A DNA stretch of 64,000 nt from a virus (IMGVR_UViG_3300031413_000001); one strand, 5' to 3'. Shown: positions 5,175-59,657, numbered from the stretch's first letter. Program-made: numbers and translations. Notes: generated by a model not told the origin, from the letters alone.

Positions 5175-5516
5175 ATGAGTCGCTACAATTATTCAAAGAT
5201 CCGCGGTGACATTCGCCCAGTCCGAGATCACATCCTTGTGATCAACATGGAAAAGGGTGAAAAGGTTACCAAGGGTGGTATTATCACGCTTGATGACAAT
5301 GGCAAGGATCGGGGTATCCGTCCTCGCTGGGCACAGGTCTGGCGCGTTGGTCATGAGCAGACTGACATCAAGGTTGGACAGTGGGTTCTAGTGGAACATG
5401 GTCGTTGGACCTATGGCGTTGAAGCTGAGATTCCCGAGAGCGCCGATGAAGTACATTATGTTCAGCGCGTAGACGTAACTGGTGTATTGGGTGTTCAGGA
5501 TGACTGCCCCTTCTAA
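5175..5516 (+). CDS. groES: co-chaperonin GroES (Cpn10)
   Basis: IRPVRDHILV...TKGGII...VGHEQTDIKVGQWVL. Confidence 0.8.
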   Translation: MSRYNYSKIRGDIRPVRDHILVINMEKGEKVTKGGIITLDDNGKDRGIRPRWAQVWRVGHEQTDIKVGQWVLVEHGRWTYGVEAEIPESADEVHYVQRVDVTGVLGVQDDCPF

Positions 5517-5709
5517 TCCACTTAAAATGGTTGTCTGGATTCAAGACAACGATCATTTTCAAAACATGAATGATTTCATAGCATTCAACAGATCCAAAGT
5601 TGTCGATTATTCTTGGTATCACGGTTTCATAGGTGAGCCATCAAGTAGTTTGACAATTGAATTTGGCAATGTATCCGACGCTTTGCTGTTTAAGTTGAAG
5701 TACGGTTGA
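5500..5709 (+). CDS. FKLxW-motif family small protein
   Basis: C-terminal IEFGNVSDALLFKLKYG. Confidence 0.7.
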   Translation: MTAPSNPLKMVVWIQDNDHFQNMNDFIAFNRSKVVDYSWYHGFIGEPSSSLTIEFGNVSDALLFKLKYG

Positions 5710-5713
5710 AGTC

Positions 5714-6076
5714 ATGCAGGCAGAGCCCATCACACTGGATGGAACCTCAAGGGGTTCCATCCAAACCTTTTTCTATCCCGTCTGTTATGTTCAGATCTTC
5801 CGCCCCTGTAGCTGGACAGATCTCCACGCCTTTATGGAAGAAGGCGATACATTCCGACAGGAGATGAGCAAGCGAGCCCACTGGCTTGACGAGCAAAAGA
5901 TCCGACACCGTATGAAATATGATCGTGTGATTGACGATCCTGACCGTCCACACTATTATAGACTTTTCATAGAGTTCTCCACTATGGATGGAGCGGAGCA
6001 GTACATTGAACGGTGGACCGAGTGGGCAGCAGAATTAAGCACCAAGTTGCTCGATATGCTTGGGAAGTTGACGTAA
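5714..6076 (+). CDS. FKLxW-motif family protein (divergent)
   Basis: HWLDEQ...IEFSTMDGAEQYIERW. Confidence 0.55.
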   Translation: MQAEPITLDGTSRGSIQTFFYPVCYVQIFRPCSWTDLHAFMEEGDTFRQEMSKRAHWLDEQKIRHRMKYDRVIDDPDRPHYYRLFIEFSTMDGAEQYIERWTEWAAELSTKLLDMLGKLT

Positions 6077-6363
6077 CGTTCATTCGAACCTACGAGCGCT
6101 ATCCCCAGTCCCAGGGCAAGACCACTTCCACCAGCGTGACACTCAACGACATTCGAGACAAGCTGGTCCGAATGGGCGAGCACGAGAAGTGGCAAAACCG
6201 TGGCAAGGACTGGTGCGCCGAACATACAAAAGATCGGTGGACCTTTGGAGACTTCCGTGTCAAGGAAGATGGATCCGGAGATGTCCAGCGAGTAGAGACA
6301 AAGTTCACATTCAATGACCGACACGATGCAATCATGTTTCAGCTGGTCAAGGATCGACTATGA
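6013..6363 (+). CDS. FKLxW-motif family protein
   Basis: DWCAEH...FTFNDRHDAIMFQLV; start uncertain. Confidence 0.65.
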   Translation: MDRVGSRIKHQVARYAWEVDVTFIRTYERYPQSQGKTTSTSVTLNDIRDKLVRMGEHEKWQNRGKDWCAEHTKDRWTFGDFRVKEDGSGDVQRVETKFTFNDRHDAIMFQLVKDRL

Positions 6364-6680
6364 GCAATGAGCTCCGATCCGAGTATGAGCACGGACAGAT
6401 CTGGATAACACCAAGTGGTGAATATGCGGTCTTGATGTCTTACGATTTCCATGCACGAAGTACCTTTCTATCACGCGCTGACTATCTGTCCATGAAACTC
6501 CACGAAGATCTGTATGAGTGGCTTGATGCAATGGGACCCAAAGTTCCTCACATCACGAACCTCACCTGTGATATTCATCCCTGGAGACACCGGCCCTTTA
6601 TCCCAGGGTCGGAGGGACTTCATGCCTTCTTTTTCTATCGCCGGAGGAATGCCTCGTTGTTCAAGCTTCGCTGGACTTGA
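6360..6680 (+). CDS. FKLxW-motif family protein
   Basis: EWLDAM...FFFYRRRNASLFKLRWT. Confidence 0.75.
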   Translation: MSNELRSEYEHGQIWITPSGEYAVLMSYDFHARSTFLSRADYLSMKLHEDLYEWLDAMGPKVPHITNLTCDIHPWRHRPFIPGSEGLHAFFFYRRRNASLFKLRWT

Positions 6681-6710
6681 CAAACTGGTAGCCAGTGCTA
6701 ATATTGGAGC

Positions 6711-7142
6711 ATGAAGCACTACCGCCCCATAAAGACCTTTGCCACTTGGCTTCTTGAGCGCGTTTCAATCCACTTGCCTTTTGAGGGCGGACGTGATTGG
6801 GGCGGAAAAGATCACGAGCATTGGATCGAGGAGCATCTTGAATTAGATCGCCAGGTAACCGGTGATCTTCGAGCAAACATCTACAGTCACAGTGGAAGCG
6901 GCTTTCCCATAGCTGGACGTCCCCACCTTCACTATTTCAATTTTCCAACCGCTGAGCAAGCGGATCTTTTTCAAGCCACATGGGGTGGAGTCCGAAGCAC
7001 GGAGACTATGAAGGAAACAGCCCGGAGGAATGAATCCATCTGGGGCAACTTCACAGCCGATGATATGCTGCACCTCTATGGTGACCCACTTCCCAACATA
7101 ATTCAGTACCATCTTTCCTACATGCAGGATCATGGCGGTTAA
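6711..7142 (+). CDS. FKLxW-motif family protein with C-terminal extension
   Basis: HWIEEH...FNFPTAEQADLFQATWGG; TTGACA promoter-like element at about 6677. Confidence 0.65.
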   Translation: MKHYRPIKTFATWLLERVSIHLPFEGGRDWGGKDHEHWIEEHLELDRQVTGDLRANIYSHSGSGFPIAGRPHLHYFNFPTAEQADLFQATWGGVRSTETMKETARRNESIWGNFTADDMLHLYGDPLPNIIQYHLSYMQDHGG

Positions 7143-7160
7143 AGTAACCGCTTCAGTCAC

Positions 7161-7550
7161 ATGCACCAACAGTGGGCGCATCTTGATTGGGTTCCGGGTG
7201 CGTTTCTTCACAGGGATCGCCAGTGCCAAGATGACGAGATAGAAGTGATCTGCTGGTTCGCAGATACTCTACAGCATCAGGTTACCCCAGATGATGAGCA
7301 TGGGTGGCAGCGTCGTTGGCATCAGTACGCCAGCAACGTCTATGAGTTCGACGATCCCTATGTTGCCAAAATGTTCATGCTACGTTTTGGCTGCGATCCT
7401 ATTCCCGAGAAGTACCGCTTTCGTGGAGACGAGATTGCGCGGAAGCTGGTACCCCATGTTTCGGGCATTCGTCACGCAACGGGCAAAGGGTACATTTGGG
7501 AGAGGACGGCCAGCATACCCGATTACCAAAGTCCACTAATAAGGGGTTGA
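7161..7550 (+). CDS. FKLxW-motif family protein with C-terminal extension
   Basis: CWFADTL...YEFDDPYVAKMFMLRFG. Confidence 0.6.
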   Translation: MHQQWAHLDWVPGAFLHRDRQCQDDEIEVICWFADTLQHQVTPDDEHGWQRRWHQYASNVYEFDDPYVAKMFMLRFGCDPIPEKYRFRGDEIARKLVPHVSGIRHATGKGYIWERTASIPDYQSPLIRG

Positions 7551-14651: not shown

Positions 14652-15059
14652 TTAGAAAGTGGGCTTCATCGAGGATTCGCTGACTTCCTTGAAGGTGCCC
14701 GGCTCCAGGATGTAATAGGCGTTGTAGCTGGGCTCCTCACAGTCTTTGTGAAAGACCAGCTTGCCGGAGACCATTGCGTCCGAGATTGCCTGGAACATCT
14801 TGTCCCCATAGCAACCCCAGATGGACGTCATCTGCGAGTAGCCCTCGTTCCCACAGCCATCGCCCTCGCGAGCATAGATCGTGAGTTCGCCATTGGGACC
14901 AACCTGCAAGGGTCCCTTCCAGTCCGGCTGGTACTGGCACTCATCGTGGTAGAGCTCACCGATCTCGGTTTCGTCCATCAGCTTGGTGTTGAGCTGATCC
15001 AGATCCTTGATCGCGAGATCATCGACCTGATAGATCTCAAGATTAGTCCACAGTCCCAT
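14652..15059 (-). CDS. hypothetical protein
   Basis: AGGAG RBS, 135 aa. Confidence 0.65.
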   Translation of the reverse strand: MGLWTNLEIYQVDDLAIKDLDQLNTKLMDETEIGELYHDECQYQPDWKGPLQVGPNGELTIYAREGDGCGNEGYSQMTSIWGCYGDKMFQAISDAMVSGKLVFHKDCEEPSYNAYYILEPGTFKEVSESSMKPTF

Positions 15060-15348
15060 CTTCTTCTCCTTTATGAAATCTCAACTTGAACAGCATTGCT
15101 TTGTCGCGGGTCTCAAATTGGAACCCGCGCTTGTCCCCGCCCATGCTGAATGATTGCCAGTGAATCTTGGGCTCACCCACACTTGTTTCCAACCAATCGT
15201 AGGCTTCCTGCGTGATAAAGCGGTGCCTTGCGTGGTGAAGGTATGAGGGAAGATTCTCATCCGTGGGATCAAAAGGATCAAAGAGCTCGTCGGTTTCCTC
15301 TTTCGTCAAATAGACGACGTGGTCTCCATCTATCTCTTTGTACTCCAT
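15043..15348 (-). CDS. FKLxW-motif family protein
   Basis: DWLETSV...FQFETRDKAMLFKLRF. Confidence 0.75.
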   Translation of the reverse strand: MEYKEIDGDHVVYLTKEETDELFDPFDPTDENLPSYLHHARHRFITQEAYDWLETSVGEPKIHWQSFSMGGDKRGFQFETRDKAMLFKLRFHKGEEDGTVD

Positions 15349-16677: not shown

Positions 16678-16717
16678 GTCCTAGATCGATCTATAACATG
16701 ACATTCTCCTCAAGCGT

Positions 16718-16794
16718 TGGTGCCCCGGAAGGGATTCGAACCCCTGACCGTCGGTTTAGGAAACCGCTACTCTATCCGGCTGAGCTACCGGGGC
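16718..16794 (-). tRNA. tRNA-Arg(CCT)
   Basis: GCCCCGGTAGCTCAG...CGGT-TTCCTAA-ACCG...GGTTCGAATCC...GGGGCACCA (CCA encoded). Confidence 0.93.
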
Positions 16795-16799
16795 ATTTG

Positions 16800-16881
16800 T
16801 GCGCCTGGAGGGACTCGAACCCCCACACCTTGCGATACCAGGACCTAAACCTGGCGCGTCTACCAATTCCACCACAAGCGC
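16800..16881 (-). tRNA. tRNA-Leu(TAG)
   Basis: GCGCTTGTGGTGGAATTGGTAGACGCG CCAGG-TTTAGGT-CCTGG, long variable arm, GGTTCGAGTCC. Confidence 0.93.
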
Positions 16882-16917
16882 GTTGTTCTCTACTTATAAG
16901 AGAGAACTATACCGTTG

Positions 16918-17283
16918 TCAACATTGCGGGCACAAAGATCGCTCAAGAAACTGCTGATTGTTTACCATATAGGCAACCATGGAATCAGTGGCCTCGGGAA
17001 AGTCGAACAGCGAATGCCAGGCATAGCTTCCCTGACCCATGGGCTCATCAGAGACCCACACGTGAAATATCTGATGGACTGGATCCTCGATATAATCCAA
17101 CACCCACTCGTTGTCCTGTACATCTTGCCCCAAGGCAGTGCCGCAATCATCCATTGCCAGATAAACGATTGGTTTCTCATAATCGTTTGGCATATTGCTG
17201 GGAAAGCCCCACGAGTTGTTCTCTTGCCGGAGTAGAAAGCGTCCGGTTGTTCTGCTCTGGATAATCATCACGTTATGTTTCAT
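16918..17283 (-). CDS. hypothetical protein, possibly a degenerate NUDIX fold
   Basis: IIQSRTTGRFLLRQENNSWGFP resembles a NUDIX N-terminus, but the box glutamates are missing. Confidence 0.45.
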   Translation of the reverse strand: MKHNVMIIQSRTTGRFLLRQENNSWGFPSNMPNDYEKPIVYLAMDDCGTALGQDVQDNEWVLDYIEDPVHQIFHVWVSDEPMGQGSYAWHSLFDFPEATDSMVAYMVNNQQFLERSLCPQC

Positions 17284-18434: not shown

Positions 18435-18464
18435 ATAGTCTGAGATTCCTTAATGATGAGAGAT

Positions 18465-18683
18465 ATGAGTAAAGAAGACACACTGAAGATGAAGGGTCTA
18501 GTAACCGAGATCCTTCCAAACGCTCTATTTCGTATCAGGCTCGAGAATGACGCAATGATTATTGGTCATATCTCGGGCAAGATGCGTAAGAACAACATCA
18601 AAGTTCTTGTCGGCGATGCCGTGGATTTGGAGATGACTCCATATGACCTGACCAAAGGTCGGATCACGTTCCGCTACAAGTAA
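18465..18683 (+). CDS. infA: translation initiation factor IF-1
   Basis: MSKEDT...[11 protein letters not shown]...[32 protein letters not shown]. Confidence 0.96.
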
Positions 18684-18944
18684 TCAGCCCCACGTTAGCT
18701 TGAACAGCAAGGCAGTGTTGGGATCCTTGAAAAAGAAGTCCGCATTGCCATAACTGGGATAGCAGTAATATACCCAATCACTGTAGTATCGCTCGTCCGT
18801 GAGAACATGCGACTCCAGCCAATCCCTTACCTCTGGTAACAAAGCTGGCTGATTGGGCCAGTCCAATGATACCACGTTGTTCAGCGGTACCTCATGGACC
18901 GGATACATCCAGGGACCATTGCGACGTATCTGAACCGCATTCAT
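18684..18944 (-). CDS. FKLxW-motif family protein
   Basis: PEVRDWLESH...FFFKDPNTALLFKLTWG. Confidence 0.8.
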   Translation of the reverse strand: MNAVQIRRNGPWMYPVHEVPLNNVVSLDWPNQPALLPEVRDWLESHVLTDERYYSDWVYYCYPSYGNADFFFKDPNTALLFKLTWG

Positions 18945-19315
18945 AGCCAGGTAAGTTTGAACAACATGGCCTGATCCTTCCGCCGGAAGTAGATCCAGTT
19001 CCAGTGCTCTTTGTACTTTCCACTTGCGTTTTGTGGCATCAGGACAAAGTCGTCATCTGACAGATTGGCCTTGATCCAATCCATCATGGCCAGTTCCTGC
19101 GAGTCATCAACGGATCGGCCAATAAAGGCAACTGGCATGCCATGTGGGTGATCTTTGATCTCTTCCTCAAAGTTCATTTCGCTCTGACGAAGAAGTAGCT
19201 CACGCATCTGGAGGAAGAGCGAAGCACCATCAGCCCCCGGTTTGGAAAACTGGTCCTGAACCGCCTGGATCTTCTTGAGGATTTCCTCGTCGAAGTTTTC
19301 GTAGACGTTGCTCAT
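18941..19315 (-). CDS. FKLxW-motif family protein
   Basis: DWIKANL...IYFRRKDQAMLFKLTWL. Confidence 0.8.
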   Translation of the reverse strand: MSNVYENFDEEILKKIQAVQDQFSKPGADGASLFLQMRELLLRQSEMNFEEEIKDHPHGMPVAFIGRSVDDSQELAMMDWIKANLSDDDFVLMPQNASGKYKEHWNWIYFRRKDQAMLFKLTWL

Positions 19316-19608
19316 CGTCCACCCCACGTGAGCTTGATGTACGTGGCAGATCCCAGATCGTTCAAGAACAGAATGGGTTCCATAGACTGAAGGCGACGTT
19401 GTGGGCCTGATGGCATGGTAACAAAGGTCTTCTTGGTATGACGATGGTCGATCGCTTGGATCAAGACCTCGTAATCCACGTTTTCCTTTTTGCCCGACGA
19501 GATCAGCCAGGCTTCCACTTCTTCAAGGACCTCGGTGTTCTTCATGCGAATATGATGTGACCACGGCCCATGCTTTGCCAGCATGTAGAAGAGTGGCTTC
19601 AATGCCAT
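19312..19608 (-). CDS. FKLxW-motif family protein
   Basis: EVEAWLI...LFLNDLGSATYIKLTWG. Confidence 0.75.
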   Translation of the reverse strand: MALKPLFYMLAKHGPWSHHIRMKNTEVLEEVEAWLISSGKKENVDYEVLIQAIDHRHTKKTFVTMPSGPQRRLQSMEPILFLNDLGSATYIKLTWGGR

Positions 19609-19853
19609 GCGAGCTTGAACTTCATCGCATCGTTGTGATCATGGAAGGCAATCCTCAGACCACCATACTCCTTGTGCTCATAGAGGTACCAATGGCTCTT
19701 GACCATGTCCTGGAGCCAGCTCTTTACTTCTGGCACAACGGTAAAGTGGGTTCCATTCCGCTTGATGCTGGTCTTCCGAACGATCAGGTCCGACCGGACT
19801 TCTTCACTGTGGGGACGAACTTTCACTGGAACCTCTTTGTCTAATTGCCACAC
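19599..19853 (-). CDS. FKLxW-motif family protein
   Basis: PEVKSWLQD...IAFHDHNDAMKFKLAWH. Confidence 0.8.
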   Translation of the reverse strand: MWQLDKEVPVKVRPHSEEVRSDLIVRKTSIKRNGTHFTVVPEVKSWLQDMVKSHWYLYEHKEYGGLRIAFHDHNDAMKFKLAWH

Positions 19854-19887
19854 TTTTATTACATGAATAGAACAACGTCAACCGCTG

Positions 19888-20280
19888 TTAGATTCTCAGA
19901 CCCCAAACGTGACTCTTAAACTGGCCAGCCAGCTCACGGGTCTCAAACTGCACAAACCAAGCCTTGCCATCCCACAGTCCCTTTTTGTAGCTGGGAGAGT
20001 GTTCGGCGCCTGGAACGGGCACTAGGACGGGAACAACCTCGGGGGCAAAGTGTTCCAGCCAGACACGCTCCGCATACCGTATATCAATCTTACTGAACAG
20101 CATGTTGCCATGCTCCTTCCAATAGTTGATTGATCGCTTGTACTTGGAAGTCCGACGCCTCTTGATTCGCCGTGCCTTGGCACTTACGGGGCCTCCCCGT
20201 CCACTCAAACTTCTAAGAAATGCCCTGCCGGACATTCTCCGTGCCTTCGTACTCTTGGTGCGACTTTTTCTTTTTGCCAT
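19888..20280 (-). CDS. FKLxW-motif family protein with very basic N-terminus
   Basis: VWLEHF...VQFETRELAGQFKSHVW; K/R-rich first 50 aa. Confidence 0.65.
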   Translation of the reverse strand: MAKRKSRTKSTKARRMSGRAFLRSLSGRGGPVSAKARRIKRRRTSKYKRSINYWKEHGNMLFSKIDIRYAERVWLEHFAPEVVPVLVPVPGAEHSPSYKKGLWDGKAWFVQFETRELAGQFKSHVWGLRI

Positions 20281-20757
20281 TTAGCCCCACGCAAGTTTGA
20301 ACATCAGCGCAATGGATTCCTTCTTGAACAAGAAGACCTCACGCTCCCGCTTGTCAATCTCCACAATGCAGACTTGGTACTTAAAGTTCTGCTCACGAAG
20401 CCATGCAAGGATTGTGCGACGATGAGCAGTTCGTAGCTCAAGTGTTTCTTGATCCATACGGGGCAGGACCCATCGCTTTGCAGGAAGGTTGTCCACATTG
20501 GGAGCGCGAGTGACTTTGATCTCCCCGCCCTTTTGATGGAACTTGGGATCGTACTTGCTTTCCCAAGCCTTCCTCTGTGTGTAGTAACTCTGAGGCTTCA
20601 TGACTTCCTCACCTGGCTCAATGAAGTCATACCAAAATGGCATTGGAAACAGGATCTTGGGGTAGATAACATTACTGAAGGGTTGGAATATGGACTGGCT
20701 GATAGTGGTCTTGCCCATCTGCCGGCCAGCAATAATTGGATAGTGTCGTCCAGACAT
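20281..20757 (-). CDS. FKLxW-motif family protein with N-terminal terminase-like Walker A peptide
   Basis: IIAGRQMGKTT at the N-terminus; AWLREQ...FLFKKESIALMFKLAWG. Confidence 0.75.
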   Translation of the reverse strand: MSGRHYPIIAGRQMGKTTISQSIFQPFSNVIYPKILFPMPFWYDFIEPGEEVMKPQSYYTQRKAWESKYDPKFHQKGGEIKVTRAPNVDNLPAKRWVLPRMDQETLELRTAHRRTILAWLREQNFKYQVCIVEIDKREREVFLFKKESIALMFKLAWG

Positions 20758-20859
20758 AGGATCTCGCAAGCTATCGTGTCGATCTTTTCCTGCGATAACT
20801 CAATATAGTACCATGTACTCTGGAGTGCAAGAGTTGAGGGTGGCCGTTAAGCCACCCCC

Positions 20860-23441: not shown

Positions 23442-23918
23442 TCAGTCCTTATCTTCCGCTAAGGACTTAGGCAATCCAAAAGTGGGTGGCGCGGGCTGGG
23501 ATGCGGCGTATTTGGCCCGCATGGTGTAGATGCTGCTATGTGGACCCTGCATGGGCGAAATCCCGAGAATATCCTGAGCAATCACGCGAGGCATCACGCG
23601 TCGAATAATGGGCAAGATAACCTTGCCAAAGACCGTCTTCTCATATGGCATACAGGGAACCCACACGAGCTTGAACCACGTGGCGTGCTTGGCATGCTGA
23701 AAGCTGATCAGGGTATCGTATGGGTACTCATTGAACCCCGGATAGCGTTCCTTGTAGTCGAGGCGCATTAGTGAGCTATCGTTGAGATTTGCCTTTATCA
23801 GAAGAGCCTCGAGCTCTTCCATGCGCTCAGGCATCAGATGGAATTGAAAGCCCAGCCTGAAGTGGCGCCTCTTCATCCGACTTGATTTCCAACGAGGCTT
23901 GCTTGAATTGGTTTTCAC
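23442..23918 (-). CDS. FKLxW-motif family protein fused to a major-capsid (gp23 Gol-region)-like peptide
   Basis: ISFQHAKHATWFKLVW followed by VILPIIRRVMPRVIAQDILGISPMQGP..IYTMRAKY; GGAG before the GTG start. Confidence 0.8.
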   Translation of the reverse strand: MKTNSSKPRWKSSRMKRRHFRLGFQFHLMPERMEELEALLIKANLNDSSLMRLDYKERYPGFNEYPYDTLISFQHAKHATWFKLVWVPCMPYEKTVFGKVILPIIRRVMPRVIAQDILGISPMQGPHSSIYTMRAKYAASQPAPPTFGLPKSLAEDKD

Positions 23919-24507: not shown

Positions 24508-24548
24508 GTGGGTTTGTTGCGCTCACCCACATGGAAAGTTCAATATTC

Positions 24549-25186: not shown

Positions 25187-25274
25187 TATGTTCTCCTCAT
25201 TGCTACCGATAATTATATGGAGGGCGGTACGTCAATTTTTGACAGACGCCCAAAATGCTTTATAGAGTGGGCTT

Positions 25275-38625: not shown

Positions 38626-38626
38626 T

Positions 38627-43567: not shown

Positions 43568-43979
43568 GGAGCCGGTAAAGTGGCTATTTGAATCGCAGGA
43601 AGGCTACCTCCTGCTATTCATCCTAGTAGCCACTGCCCCGCTTTGCTGGGCCCTCTGGGAAGGCTTCCGTGACGCTTCGTTGGGGCGGGCAACCGTATTC
43701 CGAGGCAGCATCGGCATCGTAGGAGTCGCGGGCGCAATGTGGCTTCAGATGGGCAATCCACTTAACTGGTGGCAGCCCTTCTTTGGTCAGCAGATGACCG
43801 TCAACAAGGACAAGATCGCCCGGCGAGAACAGTCGGGTGAAACTGCCGGTGCAGTTCAGCAAGAGATCCGAGACTGGGTCAAGGAGATGGCCAAGAGCCG
43901 CTTCTATGAACTGAATCCCTACACGTACAAGTTCCTGAAAAAGGCTGATGCAGCGATGTTCAAGTTGGCCTGGGGCTGA
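43536..43979 (+). CDS. FKLxW-motif family protein with two N-terminal TM helices
   Basis: EIRDWVKE...YKFLKKADAAMFKLAWG. Confidence 0.75.
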   Translation: MNKPKGPVWYKEPVKWLFESQEGYLLLFILVATAPLCWALWEGFRDASLGRATVFRGSIGIVGVAGAMWLQMGNPLNWWQPFFGQQMTVNKDKIARREQSGETAGAVQQEIRDWVKEMAKSRFYELNPYTYKFLKKADAAMFKLAWG

Positions 43980-44230
43980 TGGACGACGCGCTGTCCTACC
44001 TGCTGAACTCCCGGACGGTCTTCTGGGAGGACATTGGGTTGCCCACCAGATCACAAATGGATACTCCGCTGACTTGCCATCTTCGGAATATGTGGGATAC
44101 CGACGTCAGTCCCTGGTTGCAGGAGTTCATCGTTCACGACTATCATGAGCACGGTGCAGGTGTTTGGTTTGCTGATCGAATGGATGCCATCCACTTTATG
44201 CTTGTGTGGAACCGACGGCTAAATCCATAG
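43979..44230 (+). CDS. FKLxW-motif family protein
   Basis: PWLQEF...VWFADRMDAIHFMLVW. Confidence 0.7.
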   Translation: MDDALSYLLNSRTVFWEDIGLPTRSQMDTPLTCHLRNMWDTDVSPWLQEFIVHDYHEHGAGVWFADRMDAIHFMLVWNRRLNP

Positions 44231-49574: not shown

Positions 49575-49725
49575 GAGATTGGGAGGATTCGTCCTCCCAA
49601 TGTTCCCTAGGGAACAAGCCAAGCTGCCATTTATTCTCTTGAGGAGGTGATTCCTTTTTACGCAGGGTCGGCAGATCCAGAGCAGCTTGGCGGGGGAGGC
49701 GTCCCCCAAGATCGAGGAGAATGAC

Positions 49726-50418
49726 ATGAACCGTCTCACCAACAACCGCGCACTGACCGACAAGATATTGGCAAAAGAACTGCTGAAAACAGTGGTCGAA
49801 GATGCTTACACCAAAGATGAACTGGTGGACTTCTTTGTTCGCATTGTAGAGTCTGCGATGATCAAGGGAATCACCACAACTGAGGTGCTGGCAGAGCAGG
49901 CGACGGCTGTCATTCTACGAGGAAAAGTAGTCCAGAAAAACGGCTACGATGTGGAAATTCCTGATAACGGTCTTAAGATTGAGGTCAAAACCTTTGGTCA
50001 AAAGCCAGGAGTTGAGGGAAAGACTTCTCCCCGTAGGGCTTACGCACCACTGACAGCAAGTAAGCACGAATCAGATTATATCGTGGCATTGGTGACCAGG
50101 AACCTTCCAGCAGTTGATGGTGAATCTGACCTGATCATCTACACGATTCCAACTGATGAACTAATTGCTGAAGACGGAAGTCTACTGCGTTCTTTGAACT
50201 TCAAGTACGATGAGGATGGATATCCAGATCCCACGTGCCCGTTCAAGAACTATATTGTACCGTCATTGGGTGACATCTATGATGCGGTAATGAACAACCC
50301 AATTAAGCGTGTCATGACTGAATGCTTCTCAGGAAAACTCTGGGTACCACTTCCCAAGAGCACACCGGACTATTCGATGGCGGTGTACACAGATGCAGAT
50401 CCTTCTCTGTTCGTTTAA
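49726..50418 (+). CDS. putative PD-(D/E)xK nuclease
   Basis: LAEQ...GYDVEIPDNGLKIEVKT; lower GC than flanks. Confidence 0.55.
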   Translation: MNRLTNNRALTDKILAKELLKTVVEDAYTKDELVDFFVRIVESAMIKGITTTEVLAEQATAVILRGKVVQKNGYDVEIPDNGLKIEVKTFGQKPGVEGKTSPRRAYAPLTASKHESDYIVALVTRNLPAVDGESDLIIYTIPTDELIAEDGSLLRSLNFKYDEDGYPDPTCPFKNYIVPSLGDIYDAVMNNPIKRVMTECFSGKLWVPLPKSTPDYSMAVYTDADPSLFV

Positions 50419-50807: not shown

Positions 50808-51373
50808 TTGACCCCAGGGACGTCACAAAGTTTGATCGAACGCAAGCAGAGCTGGAAGAGTTCTGGCTCTTTTGCCTGACGGTTGCCGGCAAGACTGCGA
50901 TGACTCAAGCCAAGCTGCTTGATGCCTTCCTGACCGTCAATCGCACCACTCCCACCCAGACACCTTTTGAGACAATCCAAGAGCTGGTCGATGATGACGA
51001 TCTGCTTACGGCGCTCAAGCTGAGCAGGCTGGGCCAGTACACGCGCTTGGAACGTGCCATGAGGGAAAGTCTCTCCTTGAAGCTTTCCACGGACTCAGTG
51101 GATGCTTTTGAAGCCATACCCGGCGTTGGTTCCAAGACGGCCAGGTTCTTTCTTCTCCACACCCGTGCTGATCAAAAGATTGCTGTCCTTGACACCCACG
51201 TGCTGCGCCACATGCGAGACTTGGGTCTAACGGAGCAGGTTGGTACTCCTCCCAAGGGACCCAAATATGCCGCGCTGGAACAGATGTTCATTGACTTAGC
51301 GGAAAAGAACAATATGTCCATTGCTGACTATGACCTTCACATCTGGCGGACCGGCAGTGGAAATACCCTCTAG
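50804..51373 (+). CDS. HhH DNA glycosylase (Ogg-like)
   Basis: IPGVGSKTARFFL...AVLDTHVLRHM...YDLHIW. Confidence 0.75.
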   Translation: MIDPRDVTKFDRTQAELEEFWLFCLTVAGKTAMTQAKLLDAFLTVNRTTPTQTPFETIQELVDDDDLLTALKLSRLGQYTRLERAMRESLSLKLSTDSVDAFEAIPGVGSKTARFFLLHTRADQKIAVLDTHVLRHMRDLGLTEQVGTPPKGPKYAALEQMFIDLAEKNNMSIADYDLHIWRTGSGNTL

Positions 51374-51377
51374 GGAC

Positions 51378-51877
51378 GTGGCCATTGGGCTACCAAGGAC
51401 ACTATTTCGATGGGTAGACAGAGATCCACACGACAAGGCGTTGAGGTGGTCCCGCAAGGTCATGATACTGGTACCGGAGCTCAAAGAGTGGATGGACGCA
51501 CAGAATGTGGAGTACCGGACCTACATTCAGAAGAGGCCCAGCCCGGGCGCGGAGGACCCCAACAACGAAGCTGGGAAATGGTCCTACCGCTTGGCGATTC
51601 GTTTGAACGATCGAAAGGTCGCCCGGCTCCTAGTGCTAGTCTGGCAGATATACCCGACGCGCATATCTTTTCTGTCACGACCCTCGTTGAAAACAACTGG
51701 CTCGAAAGCCTCCACCAAGGCCCCTGTCCACCCCTCAAAGAAGAAGTCAAAGAGTGGCTGGAGGAAGTGGGGATCGAGCACACACTTGATATTCGACCCA
51801 TCTGGGCGTCCAGTGCCAGCACCATAACGATCCTCAGGGCTGATCATGCGATGCTTTTCAAGTTGAGGTGGTTATGA
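51378..51877 (+). CDS. two FKLxW-family domains in overlapping frames (51378-51827 and about 51641-51877)
   Basis: Frame 1: PELKEWMD...IRLNDRKVARLLVLVW; -1 frame: EEVKEWLEE...ITILRADHAMLFKLRWL. Confidence 0.65.
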
Positions 51878-52089
51878 GAACCTTTGAACTCCGCGAGGGT
51901 GACCACTACACGGTTCAGTACCATCAGGTATTCAATAAGCATGCCATCCGTTTCATCCGTCCCGAGCTCAGTGTCTGGCTCAACCAGTTTGGTGTCATCT
52001 ACACCCTGCACTACACTCTTGATTCCAAATACACCATTGGTATCGAGGACGATCGACAAGCTGCTCACTTCAAACTGACGTGGATGTAA
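51874..52089 (+). CDS. FKLxW-motif family protein
   Basis: PELSVWLNQ...IGIEDDRQAAHFKLTWM. Confidence 0.8.
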   Translation: MRTFELREGDHYTVQYHQVFNKHAIRFIRPELSVWLNQFGVIYTLHYTLDSKYTIGIEDDRQAAHFKLTWM

Positions 52090-52346
52090 TGCAAATCTCA
52101 GAAGAAATAGCAGAAATCTCCATGCGGACGTTTGTTCTAAACTCCAAGCAGGTGGTACGATACAACAAACATTCCACGAAGCCTTCTGATCCCTATTACA
52201 CTTCAGAATACCGACTTCGCCCCGATATGGAAATCTGGATTCGTAACCTGAAGATGCCATTTCAATGGAAGGCTGGATATGGCGTCCATCGAATCATCTT
52301 TGATAACCCCAAGGATGCCATGCTGTTCAAACTGACGTGGATGTAA
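52069..52346 (+). repeat. exact 21-nt direct repeat ending two adjacent genes
   Basis: ttcaaactgacgtggatgtaa at 52069-52089 and 52326-52346. Confidence 0.9.
52089..52346 (+). CDS. FKLxW-motif family protein
   Basis: PDMEIWIRN...IIFDNPKDAMLFKLTWM. Confidence 0.8.
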   Translation: MQISEEIAEISMRTFVLNSKQVVRYNKHSTKPSDPYYTSEYRLRPDMEIWIRNLKMPFQWKAGYGVHRIIFDNPKDAMLFKLTWM

Positions 52347-52757: not shown

Positions 52758-53839
52758 CCATTTACATCATGGCTCTTGAGCCACTTGACACGCGATACAC
52801 TGGACAATGGTTCAACGGCCTTCCCAGCCTTATCAGGTCGGAGGCCGAGAGCCGTGGTGTGCAGGTTGAAGTGGTCAACATTGCTGGTGAGCAAACCAGC
52901 AGCACGGTAACCGAGGGAGCCTTTCTAGACTTCTTCGCAACCAACATCTGGAAGAACACACAAGTCAACGAGCTGGTTCGTCGCTTTCAAGCAGGCGAGG
53001 TCAAAGCTGGTGACAAGGTGCTGTTCACGGATGCCTGGCACACTGGTATCACACAGGTTCGCTACATGAGTGAACTGATGAACATTCCAGTTGAGATTCA
53101 CAGCATGTGGCATGCTGGATCCTATGATCCCCAGGACTTTTTGGGTCGGCTGATCAAGGACAAGAAGTGGACGTTCAATACTGAGCGTGGTCTGTTCTTT
53201 GCAGCGGATTTCAACTACTTTGCGACTACGTATCATCGCGATCTGTTCATAGACACCCTGTTCATTCACGCAGATGCGTGGGAACGCTATGAGGCACGAA
53301 AGCGTTGCCTGATTAGCGGACAGCCCCACAACGCACTCGTTGAAGCACTGGAACCGTTCCGTGGCATGCAGAAGGAACGACTGGTTCTCTTTCCCCACAG
53401 GTTGGCTCCGGAAAAGCAGGTTGAGATCTTCCGAGATCTTTCGACGCGGATGCCGGGTACCAAGTTTGTGGTCTGTCAGGATGAAAAGCTAACCAAGGAT
53501 CAGTACCATGATCTCTTGGGTCGTGCCATGATGGTTTTCAGTGCCAACTTGCAGGAAACCCTGGGTATCAGTGCCATGGAGGGTGTTCTCGTGGATGCCA
53601 TGCCATGCTTGCCCAACCGGCTTTCCTATACTGAGATGTATGAGGAAAAGTACCTCTACCCTAGTGAGTGGACCAAGGACTGGAAGAGCTATGTGGCTCA
53701 CCGCGATGAACTGATCAGCCACATGAACGTGATGATGGATGACTACTGGGAAACCTGCGAGGTGTTGAAGCAGCAAAAGACCAGGCTCCTAGATCACTAC
53801 TTGAGTTGTAAGCCAATGCTGGATGGATTGTTGGGATGA
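52754..53839 (+). CDS. GT-B glycosyltransferase
   Basis: FPHRLAPEKQ...ETLGISAMEG (Ex7E motif). Confidence 0.8.
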   Translation: MTIYIMALEPLDTRYTGQWFNGLPSLIRSEAESRGVQVEVVNIAGEQTSSTVTEGAFLDFFATNIWKNTQVNELVRRFQAGEVKAGDKVLFTDAWHTGITQVRYMSELMNIPVEIHSMWHAGSYDPQDFLGRLIKDKKWTFNTERGLFFAADFNYFATTYHRDLFIDTLFIHADAWERYEARKRCLISGQPHNALVEALEPFRGMQKERLVLFPHRLAPEKQVEIFRDLSTRMPGTKFVVCQDEKLTKDQYHDLLGRAMMVFSANLQETLGISAMEGVLVDAMPCLPNRLSYTEMYEEKYLYPSEWTKDWKSYVAHRDELISHMNVMMDDYWETCEVLKQQKTRLLDHYLSCKPMLDGLLG

Positions 53840-54279
53840 CCGCCATTCTCGTAACCAAGGCTCGCAGGAGTCGTTACATTTCCAAGGAAGTCTTTGAGAA
53901 TCGTGCCGACGCTCGTGGAACAGCGCCCACGTGGGTTCCTGCGCCTGGTTACGAGGACCTAGTCAGGGCCTTTATCAACAACAAAGCCTACGCGGAGTTT
54001 GTCACCGCGTATTTTGATGACATGGATAGAGGTCGCGGAAGTGACTATGAGGACATCGATGAATGGATCATGGACCTCAAGGACTTCTGTGATCGCAACT
54101 GCACAGGGCTGTGGACCTACCATCAGAACTACCGGCGGAACAGCGACTTCAACAGCAAGACGCATCACTACTCCTACCATGACACTGGCACTGGTCGACT
54201 GAGTGTTCACTTTGAAAACGAAGCAGACGTCGAGATGTTTCTAACCAAGTGCCCAATTTTCCAAAATGATAAATCATAA
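53836..54279 (+). CDS. FKLxW-motif family protein (divergent)
   Basis: KDFCDRNCTGLW...VHFENEADVEMFL. Confidence 0.55.
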   Translation: MTAILVTKARRSRYISKEVFENRADARGTAPTWVPAPGYEDLVRAFINNKAYAEFVTAYFDDMDRGRGSDYEDIDEWIMDLKDFCDRNCTGLWTYHQNYRRNSDFNSKTHHYSYHDTGTGRLSVHFENEADVEMFLTKCPIFQNDKS

Positions 54280-55180: not shown

Positions 55181-55684
55181 GTGGTTCCCGGTAAGATTCA
55201 TTATACCAATGAGCAAATGAAGGGTGATCTCCATGAGATCATCCGTCAGGTAATCACATCGGGATTTGTTCCCGATGTGATTGTTGGTATCGCTCGTGGT
55301 GGATTGGTTCCGGCAACCATGCTCAGTCACTACTTCAACGCACCACTGGTCTGTCTAAACGTTAGCCTACGGGACAACAAGGTCGACAACGGCCACGACA
55401 GCATGGACACTCTGGCCGATGACATTCGGCATGAAAAGAGGATCCTGCTAGTCGATGATATTTGCGACTCTGGTGCAACCCTGCGTATGATATACGAGAA
55501 GGTCGACACCTGGCGTGCCTTTTCCGAGGACTTTGAGGGCTGGCGCAATCGCGTTCGAACCGCAGTTCTCTGGAACAACACAGCTCAGGATGAGTTCGAA
55601 GCAGATTATGTGGGTCGAGAGATCAGTCGAGCGGACGATGAACGCTGGGTTATCTTTCCCTATGAGGAATGGTGGAAAGCATGA
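55181..55684 (+). CDS. type I phosphoribosyltransferase (Gpt-like)
   Basis: GIARGGLVPA, LLVDDICDSGAT, WVIFPYE. Confidence 0.88.
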   Translation: MVPGKIHYTNEQMKGDLHEIIRQVITSGFVPDVIVGIARGGLVPATMLSHYFNAPLVCLNVSLRDNKVDNGHDSMDTLADDIRHEKRILLVDDICDSGATLRMIYEKVDTWRAFSEDFEGWRNRVRTAVLWNNTAQDEFEADYVGREISRADDERWVIFPYEEWWKA

Positions 55685-56184
55685 GCTTTGATAACAACGT
55701 CACTTGGGCAGTGATTGTTGGTGTGATAGCATTGGTATGGCAGATATTTCTAAAGGATATCGTCGAATCTCGTCGCCGGTATAAACTGATATACCGAACG
55801 TATGTTCAGGAGGCAATGGAAATTGGAGCCAAGATTGAGGATCCTAATTCTAGCCCCTCCGATCTTTTGACCTTATTCGATGAACTTGATAGAATCTCTA
55901 GAAAGCTACGAGATGAATCTTGGGGTCTGCTTTCTATGTGGGGTTTATTTCTGGCTCCCTCGGCATACGCTGATATCAACTGGTGTACGAATACGATTCG
56001 CCACGCAGTACCATCATGGCTTGCACGAAATAGTGGATGCAATATGAATATCAATGGCTTTCAGAATAAGGATTATCAAACAGCCTATCAATTGATTGAC
56101 GATATCATTGTTGTATCAGCATTCAAAGCTCGCTTCATCCTCTCAAAATATCGGTATGAGAGGTACAAGAATGGGAAGTCCTGA
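55681..56184 (+). CDS. AT-rich hypothetical membrane protein
   Basis: N-terminal TM helix; composition differs from flanks. Confidence 0.55.
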   Translation: MSFDNNVTWAVIVGVIALVWQIFLKDIVESRRRYKLIYRTYVQEAMEIGAKIEDPNSSPSDLLTLFDELDRISRKLRDESWGLLSMWGLFLAPSAYADINWCTNTIRHAVPSWLARNSGCNMNINGFQNKDYQTAYQLIDDIIVVSAFKARFILSKYRYERYKNGKS

Positions 56185-56668
56185 GAGATCTCGAGAATGG
56201 CTTCTTCGCAAAAAGTTCAACATGAGTCAAGCAATCTACGACCGACTTTCTGAGGAACAGAACCATGTTTGCTACATCTGCCATGGGCGCGATGACTTCA
56301 GCGAGTTTATGGCAGTAGATCATTGTCATACCAACGGGCATGTTCGAGGACTTCTATGTAGGAATTGTAATCGAGCCCTTGGACAGTTTCAGGATAATGT
56401 AGACTTTCTGGAACGGGCCATAGTATATCTTAAGAAAGATCCCCCGGTACTTGGGGAACCTGAGCCACCAAAACCAGCAAAACCTCACAGAAGTAGGGCG
56501 CGTTGGCGTTGCATAGTAACAACCCCAGATCAGACATTCTCTTCCTATAAAGAAGCAGGAGATCATTTTGGAGTTCATGCTACCACGGTGATGGGTTGGT
56601 GTCTCGAAGGAAAGAGCAAGCGTGCCGGCTTCTCATCAGAAAAGGTATTTGGTGCAGAGCATGAATGA
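56171..56668 (+). mobile_element. endonuclease VII-type homing endonuclease
   Basis: CYIC...AVDHCHTNGHVRGLLCRNCNRALG; C-terminal NUMOD/HTH-like FSSYKEAGDHFGV. Confidence 0.85.
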
Positions 56669-57536: not shown

Positions 57537-57588
57537 ATCCTGCTTTTAAGGGTTTGACATCCAGACTCCAGTAGCGTAGGCTTCTCGT

Positions 57589-57960
57589 ATGTATTTGTCA
57601 GGAATCAGAGAAGCCTACGACTATCCAACGATGGAGGGCTGGTGGGTTATCTATTCCACATATCCTCAGGAAAACTTCAGGAAGTGGATGGAAGACTTTC
57701 CCTATGATTGCTGGTGCAGCACCGTTGAGCTGGGCAAAGATGGACTGGCCCAAGACAAGCGGAGGGATTGGGACTACATTATCCTGATCAAAAATCCTGC
57801 GGCCTACCTGCACTTTCGGTCAACGTGGCAAACTGATCATGAGTACATGGTCTGCCATGAGCCCCACAACATCAACAGTGCCCAATACCATTTCGCGGAA
57901 CACATGCCAAATGGTTGGATGTATGACGACAATCTTCCCATTCACAGTTTTCAAGCATGA
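57589..57960 (+). CDS. FKLxW-motif family protein (divergent)
   Basis: RKWMED...ILIKNPAAYLHFRSTW. Confidence 0.55.
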   Translation: MYLSGIREAYDYPTMEGWWVIYSTYPQENFRKWMEDFPYDCWCSTVELGKDGLAQDKRRDWDYIILIKNPAAYLHFRSTWQTDHEYMVCHEPHNINSAQYHFAEHMPNGWMYDDNLPIHSFQA

Positions 57961-58520
57961 CAGATCGAACCCCGCACAAGAACGAGGCTGCCGTGAAAGT
58001 CATCAATATATTCGGAGGACCGGGCGCTGGTAAGAGTACCACCGCAGCCGGTCTTTTCTATGAAATGAAGAAGCGTAGGATCCAGGTCGAACTCGTAACC
58101 GAGTATGCCAAGGACATGACGTGGGAAAAGCGCCACAACGTACTGAGCGATCAGCTCTACATTCTGGCCAAACAAAACCGCCGCATCCAGCGATTGATTG
58201 GGCAAGTTGAGTGGGTGATCACCGACAGTCCACTTCCAATTGGCCTGGTCTATGCAGAGCCCAACTACTTTCCCACATTTGAGCCCATGGTCATGGAACT
58301 GTGGAACTCCTATGACAACATCAACTTTCTACTAGGTCGGGACTTTGAATACCAGACCGAGGGGCGGAATCAAACTGCCGAGGAAGCAATTGGTGTTGAT
58401 GCTGCGATGATGGCCCTATTGGAGCGCACTCGCATCTCCCACACGAGGATCTATCACAACCCAGAGGTTGATCGCGTTCAACAGATCATCGACCTCATTG
58501 GGGTAAATACCTCAAGTTAA
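57957..58520 (+). CDS. P-loop kinase/ATPase (NadR/AAA_28-like)
   Basis: GGPGAGKST, VTEYAK, ITDSP, EGRNQ. Confidence 0.8.
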   Translation: MTDRTPHKNEAAVKVINIFGGPGAGKSTTAAGLFYEMKKRRIQVELVTEYAKDMTWEKRHNVLSDQLYILAKQNRRIQRLIGQVEWVITDSPLPIGLVYAEPNYFPTFEPMVMELWNSYDNINFLLGRDFEYQTEGRNQTAEEAIGVDAAMMALLERTRISHTRIYHNPEVDRVQQIIDLIGVNTSS

Positions 58521-58533
58521 GTAAGAGGTTAAA

Positions 58534-59400
58534 ATGGCAAAGATCAACAGGCTGATCCCTTTCAGCTGGTGGCCAGCAAACTGGGGATTGACAGGAAGCC
58601 GCCGGGCTAGGGCGCACGCCGAGTATTATCTCGACGGCGAAGACTTGGCTTACCGGCTTCTGGACATTGAGTACCCCGAGCTCTCCGATAAGGAAGAGAC
58701 GTGGGCACAGGAATACCGCACTGACAAGCTCAAGCTGGATTATCGCTATCACAAGATTGGCGAGTTCGACTATGGCTTGGGCTTGATTGAGAACAATCCC
58801 AAACTCACAATCAACGACCGTGCTCGTGAGATTGCCAAGTACCGCCACAGGTTTGGTAAGATCACCAGTGAGGAACTTGAGTACAAGCTGCTAGATCTCT
58901 CCTATGAGGTAAAGGACACCGAAGCCTTCAACCGTGACAAGTTGAAGCTGGATGTTCGCTTTGGAAAGAAGACGCAAGAGCAAGCCGACCGAGAGCTCCT
59001 TGATCTAAAGTATCCCGACAAGGATGTCGTTGAATACAAAAAGGAAGTTCTGCAGCTTGAGCGAAAGCATGGCAAGATCTCCCAGAATGAGCTTGAAAAG
59101 CAAACGGCAACCTTGGACGAAGAGCCTTGGTTCAACTTTCTAGGTGCTGACAAGCGGATCACCGGCGACACTGTTCGTGCCGCTGTTGAGCTGGACTGGA
59201 ATGAATACTTTCCTCCCTATCTGATCTCCCAGGGATGGACTGGCGCCACCGACGATGAGATCGTTGACAAGTGGTTTGAAGCCATGATGCGCGACATGCT
59301 GAACATCGCGGACGATCAGGTGATTGACGATGGAAGCGAAGATCCGCTGCCACTGGCCAGCAAGGTTCAGCGAGACGATGGTCTAACTGAGTACCGCTGA
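58534..59400 (+). CDS. phage protein with four internal helical repeats
   Basis: Repeated L.l...(fg)K(I/K)s..E...(LLD) units; C-terminal ELDWNEYF. Confidence 0.7.
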   Translation: MAKINRLIPFSWWPANWGLTGSRRARAHAEYYLDGEDLAYRLLDIEYPELSDKEETWAQEYRTDKLKLDYRYHKIGEFDYGLGLIENNPKLTINDRAREIAKYRHRFGKITSEELEYKLLDLSYEVKDTEAFNRDKLKLDVRFGKKTQEQADRELLDLKYPDKDVVEYKKEVLQLERKHGKISQNELEKQTATLDEEPWFNFLGADKRITGDTVRAAVELDWNEYFPPYLISQGWTGATDDEIVDKWFEAMMRDMLNIADDQVIDDGSEDPLPLASKVQRDDGLTEYR

Positions 59401-59657
59401 TGTTTTCCTGTTCCTACAAAAAGGTCATAGATCCCGCAGATTTGGAACCTGTTTTGATGATGGTGACCACTAGCCAGCGACGTCTTAGAAAGTCTCTTAG
59501 AAAGATGGTCAACTTCACAGTTCGCAGGGTAGAGGCCAGACCATGGTTTGGCATTCCTATGACTTACATGGTGATCCATTGCGCTGACCAAGCGGACTAC
59601 GATGTAATACTAAAATGGTTCCCCTTCCAACGGATTTCGATGACCGAACCCAAGTAA
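59400..59657 (+). CDS. hypothetical protein, possibly a divergent FKLxW member
   Basis: VIHCADQADYDVILKW. Confidence 0.45.
   Translation: MFSCSYKKVIDPADLEPVLMMVTTSQRRLRKSLRKMVNFTVRRVEARPWFGIPMTYMVIHCADQADYDVILKWFPFQRISMTEPK

Follow-up and report, generated by a model that had tools for sequence, protein, structure and literature searches.

A very large, old family of small paralogous proteins with one predicted beta-alpha-beta-beta-alpha scaffold in a T4-related jumbo phage, with cassette turnover and fusion to a capsid-protein segment

The uncultured virus IMGVR_UViG_3300031413_000001 is represented here by a stretch of 64,000 nucleotides (the window), which is part of a T4-related jumbo phage genome of about 460 kb. 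The window encodes 22 supported members of a family of small proteins characterized by a last helix of the type A..FKL.W, and structure prediction suggests that they share one beta-alpha-beta-beta-alpha scaffold. The record closest to the window is G001 (IMG/VR, 416,714 bp), which shows about 97% identity to it and is collinear with window positions 21–63784; about 15% of the genes (about one in seven) of this phage lineage are family members. The copies are real, constrained genes, their arrays appear to be edited by recombination within the shared motif, and in one sub-lineage the family domain is fused to a diverged copy of the major capsid protein (MCP) segment known as Gol. Our leading reading, which we hold tentatively and at somewhat less than even confidence, is that the family constitutes a repertoire of specific intracellular binders or decoys serving host takeover or counter-defence.

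A preliminary description of the window, made from the sequence alone, had proposed a shared-motif family, and both motif counts and profile cross-detection confirm it. The six-frame translation contains 14 instances of A..FKL.[WFY], whereas 100 block shuffles gave 0.06 on average (maximum 1), and FKL.[WFY] with a stop 0–2 residues further on occurs 11 times, against 0.11 in the shuffles. When each of the 14 exact-motif domains was left out in turn, 13 ranked first and one second among 853 open reading frames (ORFs), with E-values from 1.5e-3 to 2.5e-10. After masking of the last nine residues, 2 of the 14 left-out copies were recovered, so that the family signal available from the window alone rests mostly on the C-terminal helix. 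An iterated hidden Markov model (HMM), in which the window family was enlarged with its G001 paralogues, detects 16 window ORFs at E ≤ 1e-4 and three more at E 0.004–0.05, and reversed sequences, used as a control, gave a best E of 1.1. Comparison of single candidate sequences with the family profile by hhalign supports 6711–7142, 7161–7550, 19312–19608, 51378–51827, 53836–54279, 57589–57960 and 43979–44230, all aligned in the right register with scores of 19.8–28.2 over 37–52 columns, against a score of at most 13.9 for 21 other small genes taken as negatives. Six members are thereby added to the 16 found by the HMM, giving the total of 22; 5714–6076 and 19888–20280 remain uncertain, and membership of 59400–59657 is unsupported.

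The arrays outlined beforehand at 23442–24854 (three genes), 43536–44230 (two genes) and 51378–52346 (four domains) are thus supported in full, and those at 5500–7550 and 18684–20757 in five of their six genes each, with the uncertain ORFs as the sixth; three of the four proposed singletons (15043, 53836 and 57589) stand, and that at 59400 does not. All ten motif endings quoted in the preliminary description are present at their places. Its remark on synonymous variation within the motif also holds, as four alanine codons and five leucine codons are used and AAA and AAG stand at 22:28; since codons at conserved residues vary freely, the constraint acts on the protein. The members are given below, together with their state in G001 and in three other phage genomes, G002 to G004.

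5482–5709, plus strand: family member of 75 aa with the end FKLKYG (HMM E 2.2e-7); in G001 it is largely replaced by another copy.
5714–6076, plus strand: uncertain divergent member (HMM E 1.4), aligned by hhalign in the right register over 45 columns, yet with a score of 11.7 that negatives also attain.
6013–6363, plus strand: family member, FQL variant (HMM E 1.9e-10), with 6 synonymous and 0 non-synonymous differences from G001.
6360–6680, plus strand: family member of 106 aa (HMM E 1.4e-13), with 17 synonymous and 0 non-synonymous differences from G001.
6711–7142, plus strand: divergent member, LFQATWGG (hhalign probability 53%, score 21.5 over 52 columns).
7161–7550, plus strand: divergent member, MFMLRFG (HMM E 0.045; hhalign score 19.8 over 49 columns).
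15043–15348, minus strand: family member, singleton, with a 10-residue tail past the motif (HMM E 1.9e-13).
18684–18944, minus strand: family member of 86 aa with a predicted fold (HMM E 2.9e-14; model m26186cb2cb59); no orthologue in G002–G004.
18941–19327, minus strand: family member with a helical N-terminal extension (HMM E 8.3e-12); positional orthologues at 37–44% identity in G002–G004.
19312–19608, minus strand: divergent member, YIKLTWGG (hhalign probability 78%); orthologues at 39–47% in G002 and G003.
19599–19853, minus strand: family member of 84 aa with a predicted fold (HMM E 7.7e-13; model m10fb3988d141, elements E35–39, H41–50, E55–59, E66–70 and H73–83).
19888–20280, minus strand: uncertain, probable divergent member, missed by the HMM, whose N-terminal tail of about 55 residues is rich in Arg/Lys; it is conserved in G002–G004 at 33–43%, its orthologues also have a basic tail, and the last 22 columns of a profile of four orthologues align to the family motif in the right register (probability 44%, score 21.3).
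20281–20769, minus strand: family member with a 110-residue N-terminal extension (HMM E 2.9e-10); the G004 orthologue (49% identity) is an ORF of 110 aa, without room for most of the extension.
23442–23918, minus strand: family member fused to a mimic of the capsid Gol segment (domain at ORF residues 35–93, E 2.6e-9).
23827–24507, minus strand: family member with the domain N-terminal and a 140-residue C-terminal extension (HMM E 4.6e-8), with orthologues in G002–G004; the extension has no match in Pfam or among the G001 ORFs.
24549–24854, minus strand: family member of 101 aa (HMM E 1.7e-7).
43491–43979, plus strand: putatively membrane-anchored member, two predicted transmembrane (TM) helices followed by the domain (HMM E 1.2e-7), with 8 synonymous and 0 non-synonymous differences.
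43979–44230, plus strand: divergent member, HFMLVW (HMM E 8.8e-5; hhalign probability 91%), without a counterpart in G001.
51378–51650, plus strand: divergent domain copy, LVLVW, in frame A (HMM E 0.0066; hhalign probability 87%); its four substitutions relative to G001 are synonymous only in frame A.
51686–51877, plus strand: domain copy in the -1 frame (HMM E 1.5e-11), with substitutions that are synonymous in the -1 frame; this frame holds no ATG, GTG or TTG from 51599 up to the domain at 51686.
51868–52089, plus strand: family member of 73 aa (HMM E 7.9e-8).
52080–52346, plus strand: family member of 88 aa, a cassette absent from G001 (HMM E 2e-8).
53836–54279, plus strand: divergent member (HMM E 0.0045; hhalign probability 67%).
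57589–57960, plus strand: divergent member, HFRSTWQ, with a 40-residue C-terminal tail (hhalign probability 58%, score 21.6 over 51 columns).

The estimate of about 20 copies was right for the window and missed the scale of the family, which amounts to about 90–100 copies per genome, with thousands of clusters elsewhere. In G001, 92 ORFs match at E ≤ 1e-3 and none of the shuffled G001 ORFs does; outside the window, the copies form two convergent mega-arrays at 194.5–210.9 kb and further arrays at 403.8–408.4 and 415.4–416.2 kb. The closest cultured relatives, judged by the DNA polymerase, are Sinorhizobium phage Phosso (57.5%) and Agrobacterium phage Atu_ph07 (52.2%), with 57 matches and five weak ones, respectively, and Pseudomonas phage PA5oct has three copies. 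Two complete IMG/VR genomes of about 460 kb hold 74 and 76 copies, a 182-kb fragment holds 65, a 39.5-kb fragment 29 and a 77-kb provirus 6, and a contig of 463,863 bp bears an identical copy of one member. Among 1.84 billion cluster representatives from metagenomes, the family profile detected 4,810 proteins at E ≤ 1e-3; among the best 150 hits listed, most have 55–110 residues with the domain C-terminal, and some have two tandem domains. The exact string AMLFKLTWG was found in one of 185,579 bacterial species genomes (Novosphingobium guangzhouense, in a prophage-like region downstream of a helicase) and in one 35.7-kb viral region of an isolate genome. Source annotations label proteins of the family 'hypothetical'.

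As the preliminary description had anticipated, the family carries no established name. Searches of Pfam-A, PHROGs v4 and NCBIfam 20 with 93 domain sequences and 10 full proteins yielded no family matched by more than one member (best single E-values 0.016–0.1; no family at all in PHROGs and NCBIfam), and the best profile match among PDB chains, at E 0.17, concerned unrelated short stretches. A match of one member to Pfam T4_y05I_C (E 0.02–0.2) is at chance level over 93 scans. With single members as tblastn queries, 50,697 phage records yielded no match or, at best, Phosso at E 0.03; for this family, searches with one sequence are too weak. A word-index homologue search with the family profile returned only the query's own cluster, as such an index cannot reach copies so diverged. 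A DNA search of the phage collection with 18–25 kb of the window gave no match, and no one-to-one orthologues of window members were found at the Phosso loci examined. Three top library hits (1,882–2,701 aa) were set aside as false positives, being HYR/Ig-repeat surface proteins that match only the variable loop region, and so was a 686-aa 'cluster member' that resembles a sigma-54-type activator and represents a clustering artefact.

The small constant fold proposed earlier is supported by AlphaFold2 (AF2) models of two different members, 18684–18944 and 19599–19853, predicted from differing alignments of 93 and 122 rows. Both give the same beta-alpha-beta-beta-alpha domain, which consists of a strand, a helix, a two-strand hairpin and a helix, with a predicted local distance difference test (pLDDT) score of 86–94 that falls to low values in the N-terminal extension. 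Unrelated folds and a profile without cross-detection, two of the outcomes that the preliminary description had named as speaking against a family, were thus not observed. The scaffold occupies about 55–60 residues in proteins of 57–230 aa, and short full-length relatives of 57–72 aa are just this unit. The upstream helix noticed beforehand is real and corresponds to helix 1, in which a tryptophan is present in 97% of copies, preceded by a hydrophobic residue and, four residues before it, by E/D, and followed by L/C. The conserved set comprises this W and L of helix 1, one aromatic position in strand 2, the F.F of strand 3 and, in the last helix, A..FKL.W with a capping glycine. Nearly all high-information columns are hydrophobic or aromatic, and conservation falls mostly on the core. 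Copies differ completely in their N-terminal region, in the loop that follows helix 1 and in the extensions that some of them have. Isoelectric points (pI) range from 4.4 to 9.8, as in the background, so the family has no common charge character; tryptophan is enriched 2.9-fold. A C-terminal GG was considered as a ubiquitin-like tail, but the glycine is present in only about half of the copies and follows the helix, which makes a helix cap the better interpretation.

Structure searches (Foldseek against the PDB twice and against BFVD once, and VIA-align wide twice) place the models among small alpha/beta domains of a generic kind (for example RRM, ACT, KH, secretin N-domains and Cas6), with best Z-scores of 5.9 and 3.2 for the two models and Foldseek E-values above 0.7. 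RRM chains reach Z 2.4–4.3 (Foldseek E > 1.7), and both models are without the last strand of the beta-alpha-beta-beta-alpha-beta topology. The predicted domain is thus like the split beta-alpha-beta or ferredoxin-like domains (RRM, ACT, KH, secretin N-domains) in the order of its elements and in the packing of two helices on one face of the sheet, whereas it differs from them in the missing last strand, in the lack of sequence similarity and in scores at the level of a common arrangement. The viral structure library returns many uncharacterised proteins of uncultured phages, and the ESM Atlas only unnamed viral clusters.

The members differ from their G001 counterparts by 130.5 synonymous and 50.5 non-synonymous changes, which corresponds to a ratio of non-synonymous to synonymous differences (pN/pS) of 0.10, against 0.04 for 33 other genes. 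The term 'hypervariable' used for them at the outset therefore overstates what happens between strains, where purifying selection acts; the paralogues are old and do not mutate fast. Most paralogue pairs within the window are undetectable by BLASTP, which indicates old duplications. Divergence between positional orthologues far outpaces that of the genes flanking them. In the slot between IF-1 and a conserved gene of 296 aa, the array cannot be aligned as DNA in G002–G004; the proteins flanking this slot (ClpP, a NUDIX protein, IF-1 and the 296-aa protein) are 67–83% identical there, whereas the array orthologues are 33–50% identical, and each lineage has a different subset of them. Even between the window and G001, 3 of the 17 members examined are without a full counterpart. 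At 52080–52346, the two genomes differ by 237 bp (52090–52326), and the junction falls inside 21 nt, TTCAAACTGACGTGGATGTAA, common to both gene ends, which encode F-K-L-T-W-M-stop of two adjacent genes. To judge from this junction, whole cassettes are gained and lost by recombination inside the shared 3' coding motif, and the arrays would grow and shrink by unequal homologous recombination within it.

The capsid-derived fusion came to light during a search for the capsid family in G001, when a second Gp23 match surfaced inside a family member. In the window, 23442–23918 has the family domain and then 45 residues (protein residues 97–141) that match positions 4–48 of Pfam Gp23 (PF07068) with E 2.1e-11 and 44.3 bits, against a gathering cut-off of 24.4. 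As only these of the 376 profile positions are matched, this is a fragment of a capsid protein and not a capsid protein. The 'core-protein mimic peptide' of the preliminary description is real in this segment, which is 60% identical to residues 81–120 of the MCP of the phage itself and aligns to residues 89–132 of T4 gp23, where the Gol peptide occupies what we take to be about residues 93–122. The Gol region shows the highest conservation within gp23 and binds domains II and III of EF-Tu, which thereby becomes cleavable by the Lit protease of prophage e14 (PMC3014915), and defence systems are repeatedly found to be triggered by capsid proteins (PMC9712102). The C-terminal part of 23442–23918 is homologous to the same part of gp23 as in this T4 system (PMC3014915, PMC9712102); here, by contrast, it is a separate, diverged copy, which lies outside any capsid protein and is fused to the family domain, and this fusion is what is new.

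The fusion is kept in G001, G002, G003 and G004, with a related form in Phosso. The MCP segment itself is 98–100% identical among G001, G002, G003 and Phosso, yet the mimics, which retain the core LP.IRRVMP..IA..I.G..PM, are 38–67% identical to it and 38–64% identical to one another, except for the window and G001 pair at 93%. The mimic thus looks like an old copy that would have kept the binding epitope while free of the constraints of capsid assembly. A second MCP segment (profile positions 305–354) is fused to other members in Phosso and G002.

The further variable appendages that had been proposed are also present, namely TM helices in 43491–43979 and a poly-basic tail in the probable member 19888–20280. 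A hydrophobic-window scan finds TM segments in 1 of 90 G001 members, the orthologue of 43491–43979, so that the family appears almost always soluble and cytoplasmic; in this one member, the N-terminal lysines and the two predicted TM spans suggest that the domain would face the cytoplasm. When the extensions were compared in G001, one weak match at the level of paralogues was obtained, between two ORFs that both bear the family domain. The N-terminus of 20281–20769 contains, within its first 25 residues or so, a Walker-A-like AGRQMGKTT that recalls the P-loop of the terminase large subunit, and it has no BLASTP match among the G001 ORFs.

The proposed model is that of a very large and old paralogous family in which one beta-alpha-beta-beta-alpha scaffold carries diversified surfaces and, occasionally, appended cargo, each copy being kept for a partner of its own, which may be a factor of the host, a sensor of a defence system, or a factor in phage assembly or translation. 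As the Gol segment binds EF-Tu and triggers Lit in T4, the Gol-mimic sub-lineage would probably compete with, or pre-empt, whatever binds the Gol peptide of the capsid. A bolder form of the model, which we regard as a long shot, is a modular decoy system in which the constant carrier shows variable peptides or surfaces that imitate conserved patterns of the phage or interaction sites of the host, absorbing or blinding abortive infection (Abi) sensors and host factors; the clearest candidate for such a pattern is the invariant capsid Gol segment, as an EF-Tu binder and a trigger of Lit-type suicide. Several points weigh against a repertoire of binders and decoys. Binding, decoy action and the timing of expression are inferred, and the fold is so generic (best Z 5.9) that it is silent on function. 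Among the 35 longer G001 members only the Gol-mimic one has any Pfam match, and the remaining extensions show no resemblance to other G001 ORFs of 150 aa or more, which leaves recognisable cargo in one sub-lineage only. Moreover, conservation of the last helix, A-[MLV]-[LM]-F-K-L-[TAR]-W, extends to seven of eight contiguous positions, with the lysine in 94% of copies; this exceeds what packing of one face needs and fits a shared docking surface at least as well.

It is this helix that keeps alive the second-ranked explanation, an adaptor family whose constant domain, above all its C-terminal helix, docks on one shared partner while the variable parts bring targets or cargo. The phage ClpP/ClpA machine, EF-Tu or the ribosome, RNA polymerase and the sliding clamp could serve as this hub, although all of them are candidates only. 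The appendages (TM helices, basic tail, capsid peptide) look like cargo, arrays flank the ClpP, DnaJ and ClpA-like genes in the window, and two of the three PA5oct members lie just downstream of ClpP, past one gene on the opposite strand. However, members are so frequent throughout the window that nearness to any gene is expected by chance, the window array is convergent with ClpP and outside its operon, and AF2 sets the helix inside the fold with pLDDT above 90, not as a free peptide; a common hub is unlikely on our estimate, if still the most serious competitor.

The remaining explanations rank lower. Nucleic-acid-binding regulators, in which an RRM/KH/ACT-like module with strand aromatics would let the copies regulate different phage or host transcripts, would account for the weak RRM, KH, ACT and Cas6-type neighbours, for a strand 3 that is hydrophobic or aromatic on both faces, for the enrichment in tryptophan and for the poly-basic tail of one probable member; but no structural match exceeds what a common arrangement would give (all at Z ≤ 5.9 or Foldseek E > 0.7), there is no basic bias, with 38 of 90 members being acidic (pI < 6), and the fourth ferredoxin-like strand is absent; we consider this reading improbable. 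A virion role, with the domain targeting variable internal, injected or decoration proteins to the capsid and the capsid fragments acting as anchors, appears about equally improbable. It is favoured by the fusion of two different conserved MCP segments (Gol in the window and G001–G004, 305–354 in Phosso and G002), and T4 internal proteins offer a precedent for variable proteins with a common targeting element. Against it, one member is a membrane protein, and there is no conserved N-terminal leader or protease site, as the N-termini are not alignable; a T4-type internal-protein leader with a prohead-protease site was not found, and the shared element is C-terminal, 12 of the 14 copies being lost when it is masked. 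Furthermore, none of the three PA5oct members carries the 'ESI-MS/MS' virion note that the nearby ClpP and baseplate hub have, in a phage for which 93 virion proteins are listed (PMC7318152). Lastly, recombination at the motif could keep making copies of little individual function, a largely neutral or selfish expansion with which the gain and loss of cassettes exactly at the motif and the 3 of 17 members without a full counterpart in a 97%-identical genome would agree. This explanation is already disfavoured, and we consider it very improbable, given the purifying selection, with several copies showing synonymous changes only, the retention of positional orthologues across phages whose flanking proteins are 67–83% identical, and paralogues too diverged for recent duplication.

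In their organisation, the arrays resemble eukaryotic-virus families such as MGF110, MGF360 and MGF505 of African swine fever virus (ASFV) and the Bcl-2-like proteins of poxviruses, which are old, diverged tandem paralogues that act as host-range or immune-evasion binders. The likeness is one of organisation only, tandem paralogues of a small fold whose copy number varies between isolates; the fold here is unrelated, the host is bacterial, and binding of targets by the present members is putative. Among jumbo phages, Bacillus phage G has a lineage-specific expansion of a zinc-ribbon family in about 35 copies (Iyer et al. 2021, PMC7824862), which is similar in that one small domain is multiplied in one genome and its function is read from context only. 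The present family, which is not mentioned in that survey, has two to three times more copies (57–92 per genome) and a different, uncatalogued alpha/beta fold, and it spans several lineages (Phosso, PA5oct and many metagenomic contigs). In the hyperplastic regions of T4-type phages, blocks of small non-essential genes are likewise inserted, deleted or replaced as whole genes at short repeats, by modular shuffling mediated by an intergenic repeat of promoter plus stem-loop, PeSL (Arbiol et al. 2010, PMC2839356). Those genes are unrelated ORFans, whereas here all are paralogues that abut or overlap with no cassette between them, and the recombining repeat is the coding sequence of the C-terminal helix; a PeSL-type sigma-70 promoter with terminator stem-loop between the shuffled array genes is not supported, the recombination junction being coding.

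The family represents a large and coherent part of viral dark matter with a confidently predicted fold, in a lineage that includes the cultured Phosso, whose 57 copies make it a cultivable system. Its arrays give a direct view of how a phage assembles and revises a library of genes, through what appears to be unequal recombination at a conserved coding motif, and the Gol-mimic member offers a concrete entry point, as it carries a defined peptide with a known T4 partner (EF-Tu, and thence Lit). If its members neutralise host factors or defence sensors, the family would be rich in new anti-defence specificities and in scaffolds for binding that are small and stable; should the modular decoy system be true, the roughly 100 copies would amount to a catalogue of the host interactions and immune triggers met by the lineage.

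The window also encodes a ClpA/B-type AAA protein, a collagen-repeat protein, an NAD ligase, a family-B DNA polymerase, a 5'-3' exonuclease, ClpP, a NUDIX protein, an IF-1 homologue and DnaJ. Arrays adjoin ClpP-NUDIX-IF-1, in convergent orientation, and also lie behind a small gene divergent from DnaJ and ClpA/B. The IF-1 homologue (18453–18683, plus strand; Pfam eIF-1a, E 5e-22) adjoins ClpP and the NUDIX protein. In PA5oct (MK797984.1), the members EST35_0274 and EST35_0275 (181548–182187) are separated from ClpP, EST35_0272, by the single opposite-strand gene, and EST35_0247 is the third member. Array genes often overlap or abut, with spacings of -1, -4, -10 and similar, which by analogy would suit operons with translational coupling.

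Promoter-like sites (5, against 8.4 expected) and terminator-like sites (12, against 9.7 expected) are not enriched at 14.5–25.5 kb. None of the eight occurrences of the T4 late-promoter word TATAAATA in G001 lies upstream of a family gene, and the word is therefore uninformative on timing. Another promoter-like word, AACTGGTTGAC-N13-TGGTGCTA, occurs about 40 times in G001, mostly at 218–390 kb, consistently with the strand and usually about 30–40 nt before the ribosome-binding site, and is probably a promoter class of another temporal module; none is present in the window or upstream of the arrays, which places the arrays in another regulatory class. A hexamer pair, TTGACA-18-TAGAGT, is identical at 21918–21889 (minus strand) and 25239–25268 (plus strand), and both sites are conserved in G001; they head transcription units that include the array 20769–18684 and the DnaJ and ClpA genes.

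Gene-sized differences from G001 occur outside the family too. Window segments 49715–50416, 55684–56650 and 59396–59655 are absent from G001, which in turn has about 300 and about 500 extra bases at window positions 43975–44000 and 57538–57546. An ORF at 16698–17264 (plus strand) shows 1.5 synonymous and 13.5 non-synonymous differences from G001 (pN/pS 2.9); the frame annotated there is probably mistaken, and 16918–17283 on the minus strand may be the true gene. The neighbouring members 23827–24507 and 23442–23918 look like a tandem pair of 'domain plus cargo' genes, as their forms in G002–G004 continue past the motif through a similar acidic W-[DE]-P-C linker into a long extension; the linker cysteine is missing from 23827–24507 of the window. 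At 51321–51877, two adjacent domain copies lie in different frames, in the same arrangement as in G001, and the upstream frame continues to 51827 through sequence that appears out of frame. Substitutions relative to G001 are synonymous in frame A at 51479–51512 and in the -1 frame at 51841–51856, and the arrangement could reflect a two-domain gene with a frameshift, a programmed shift, or a long overlap.

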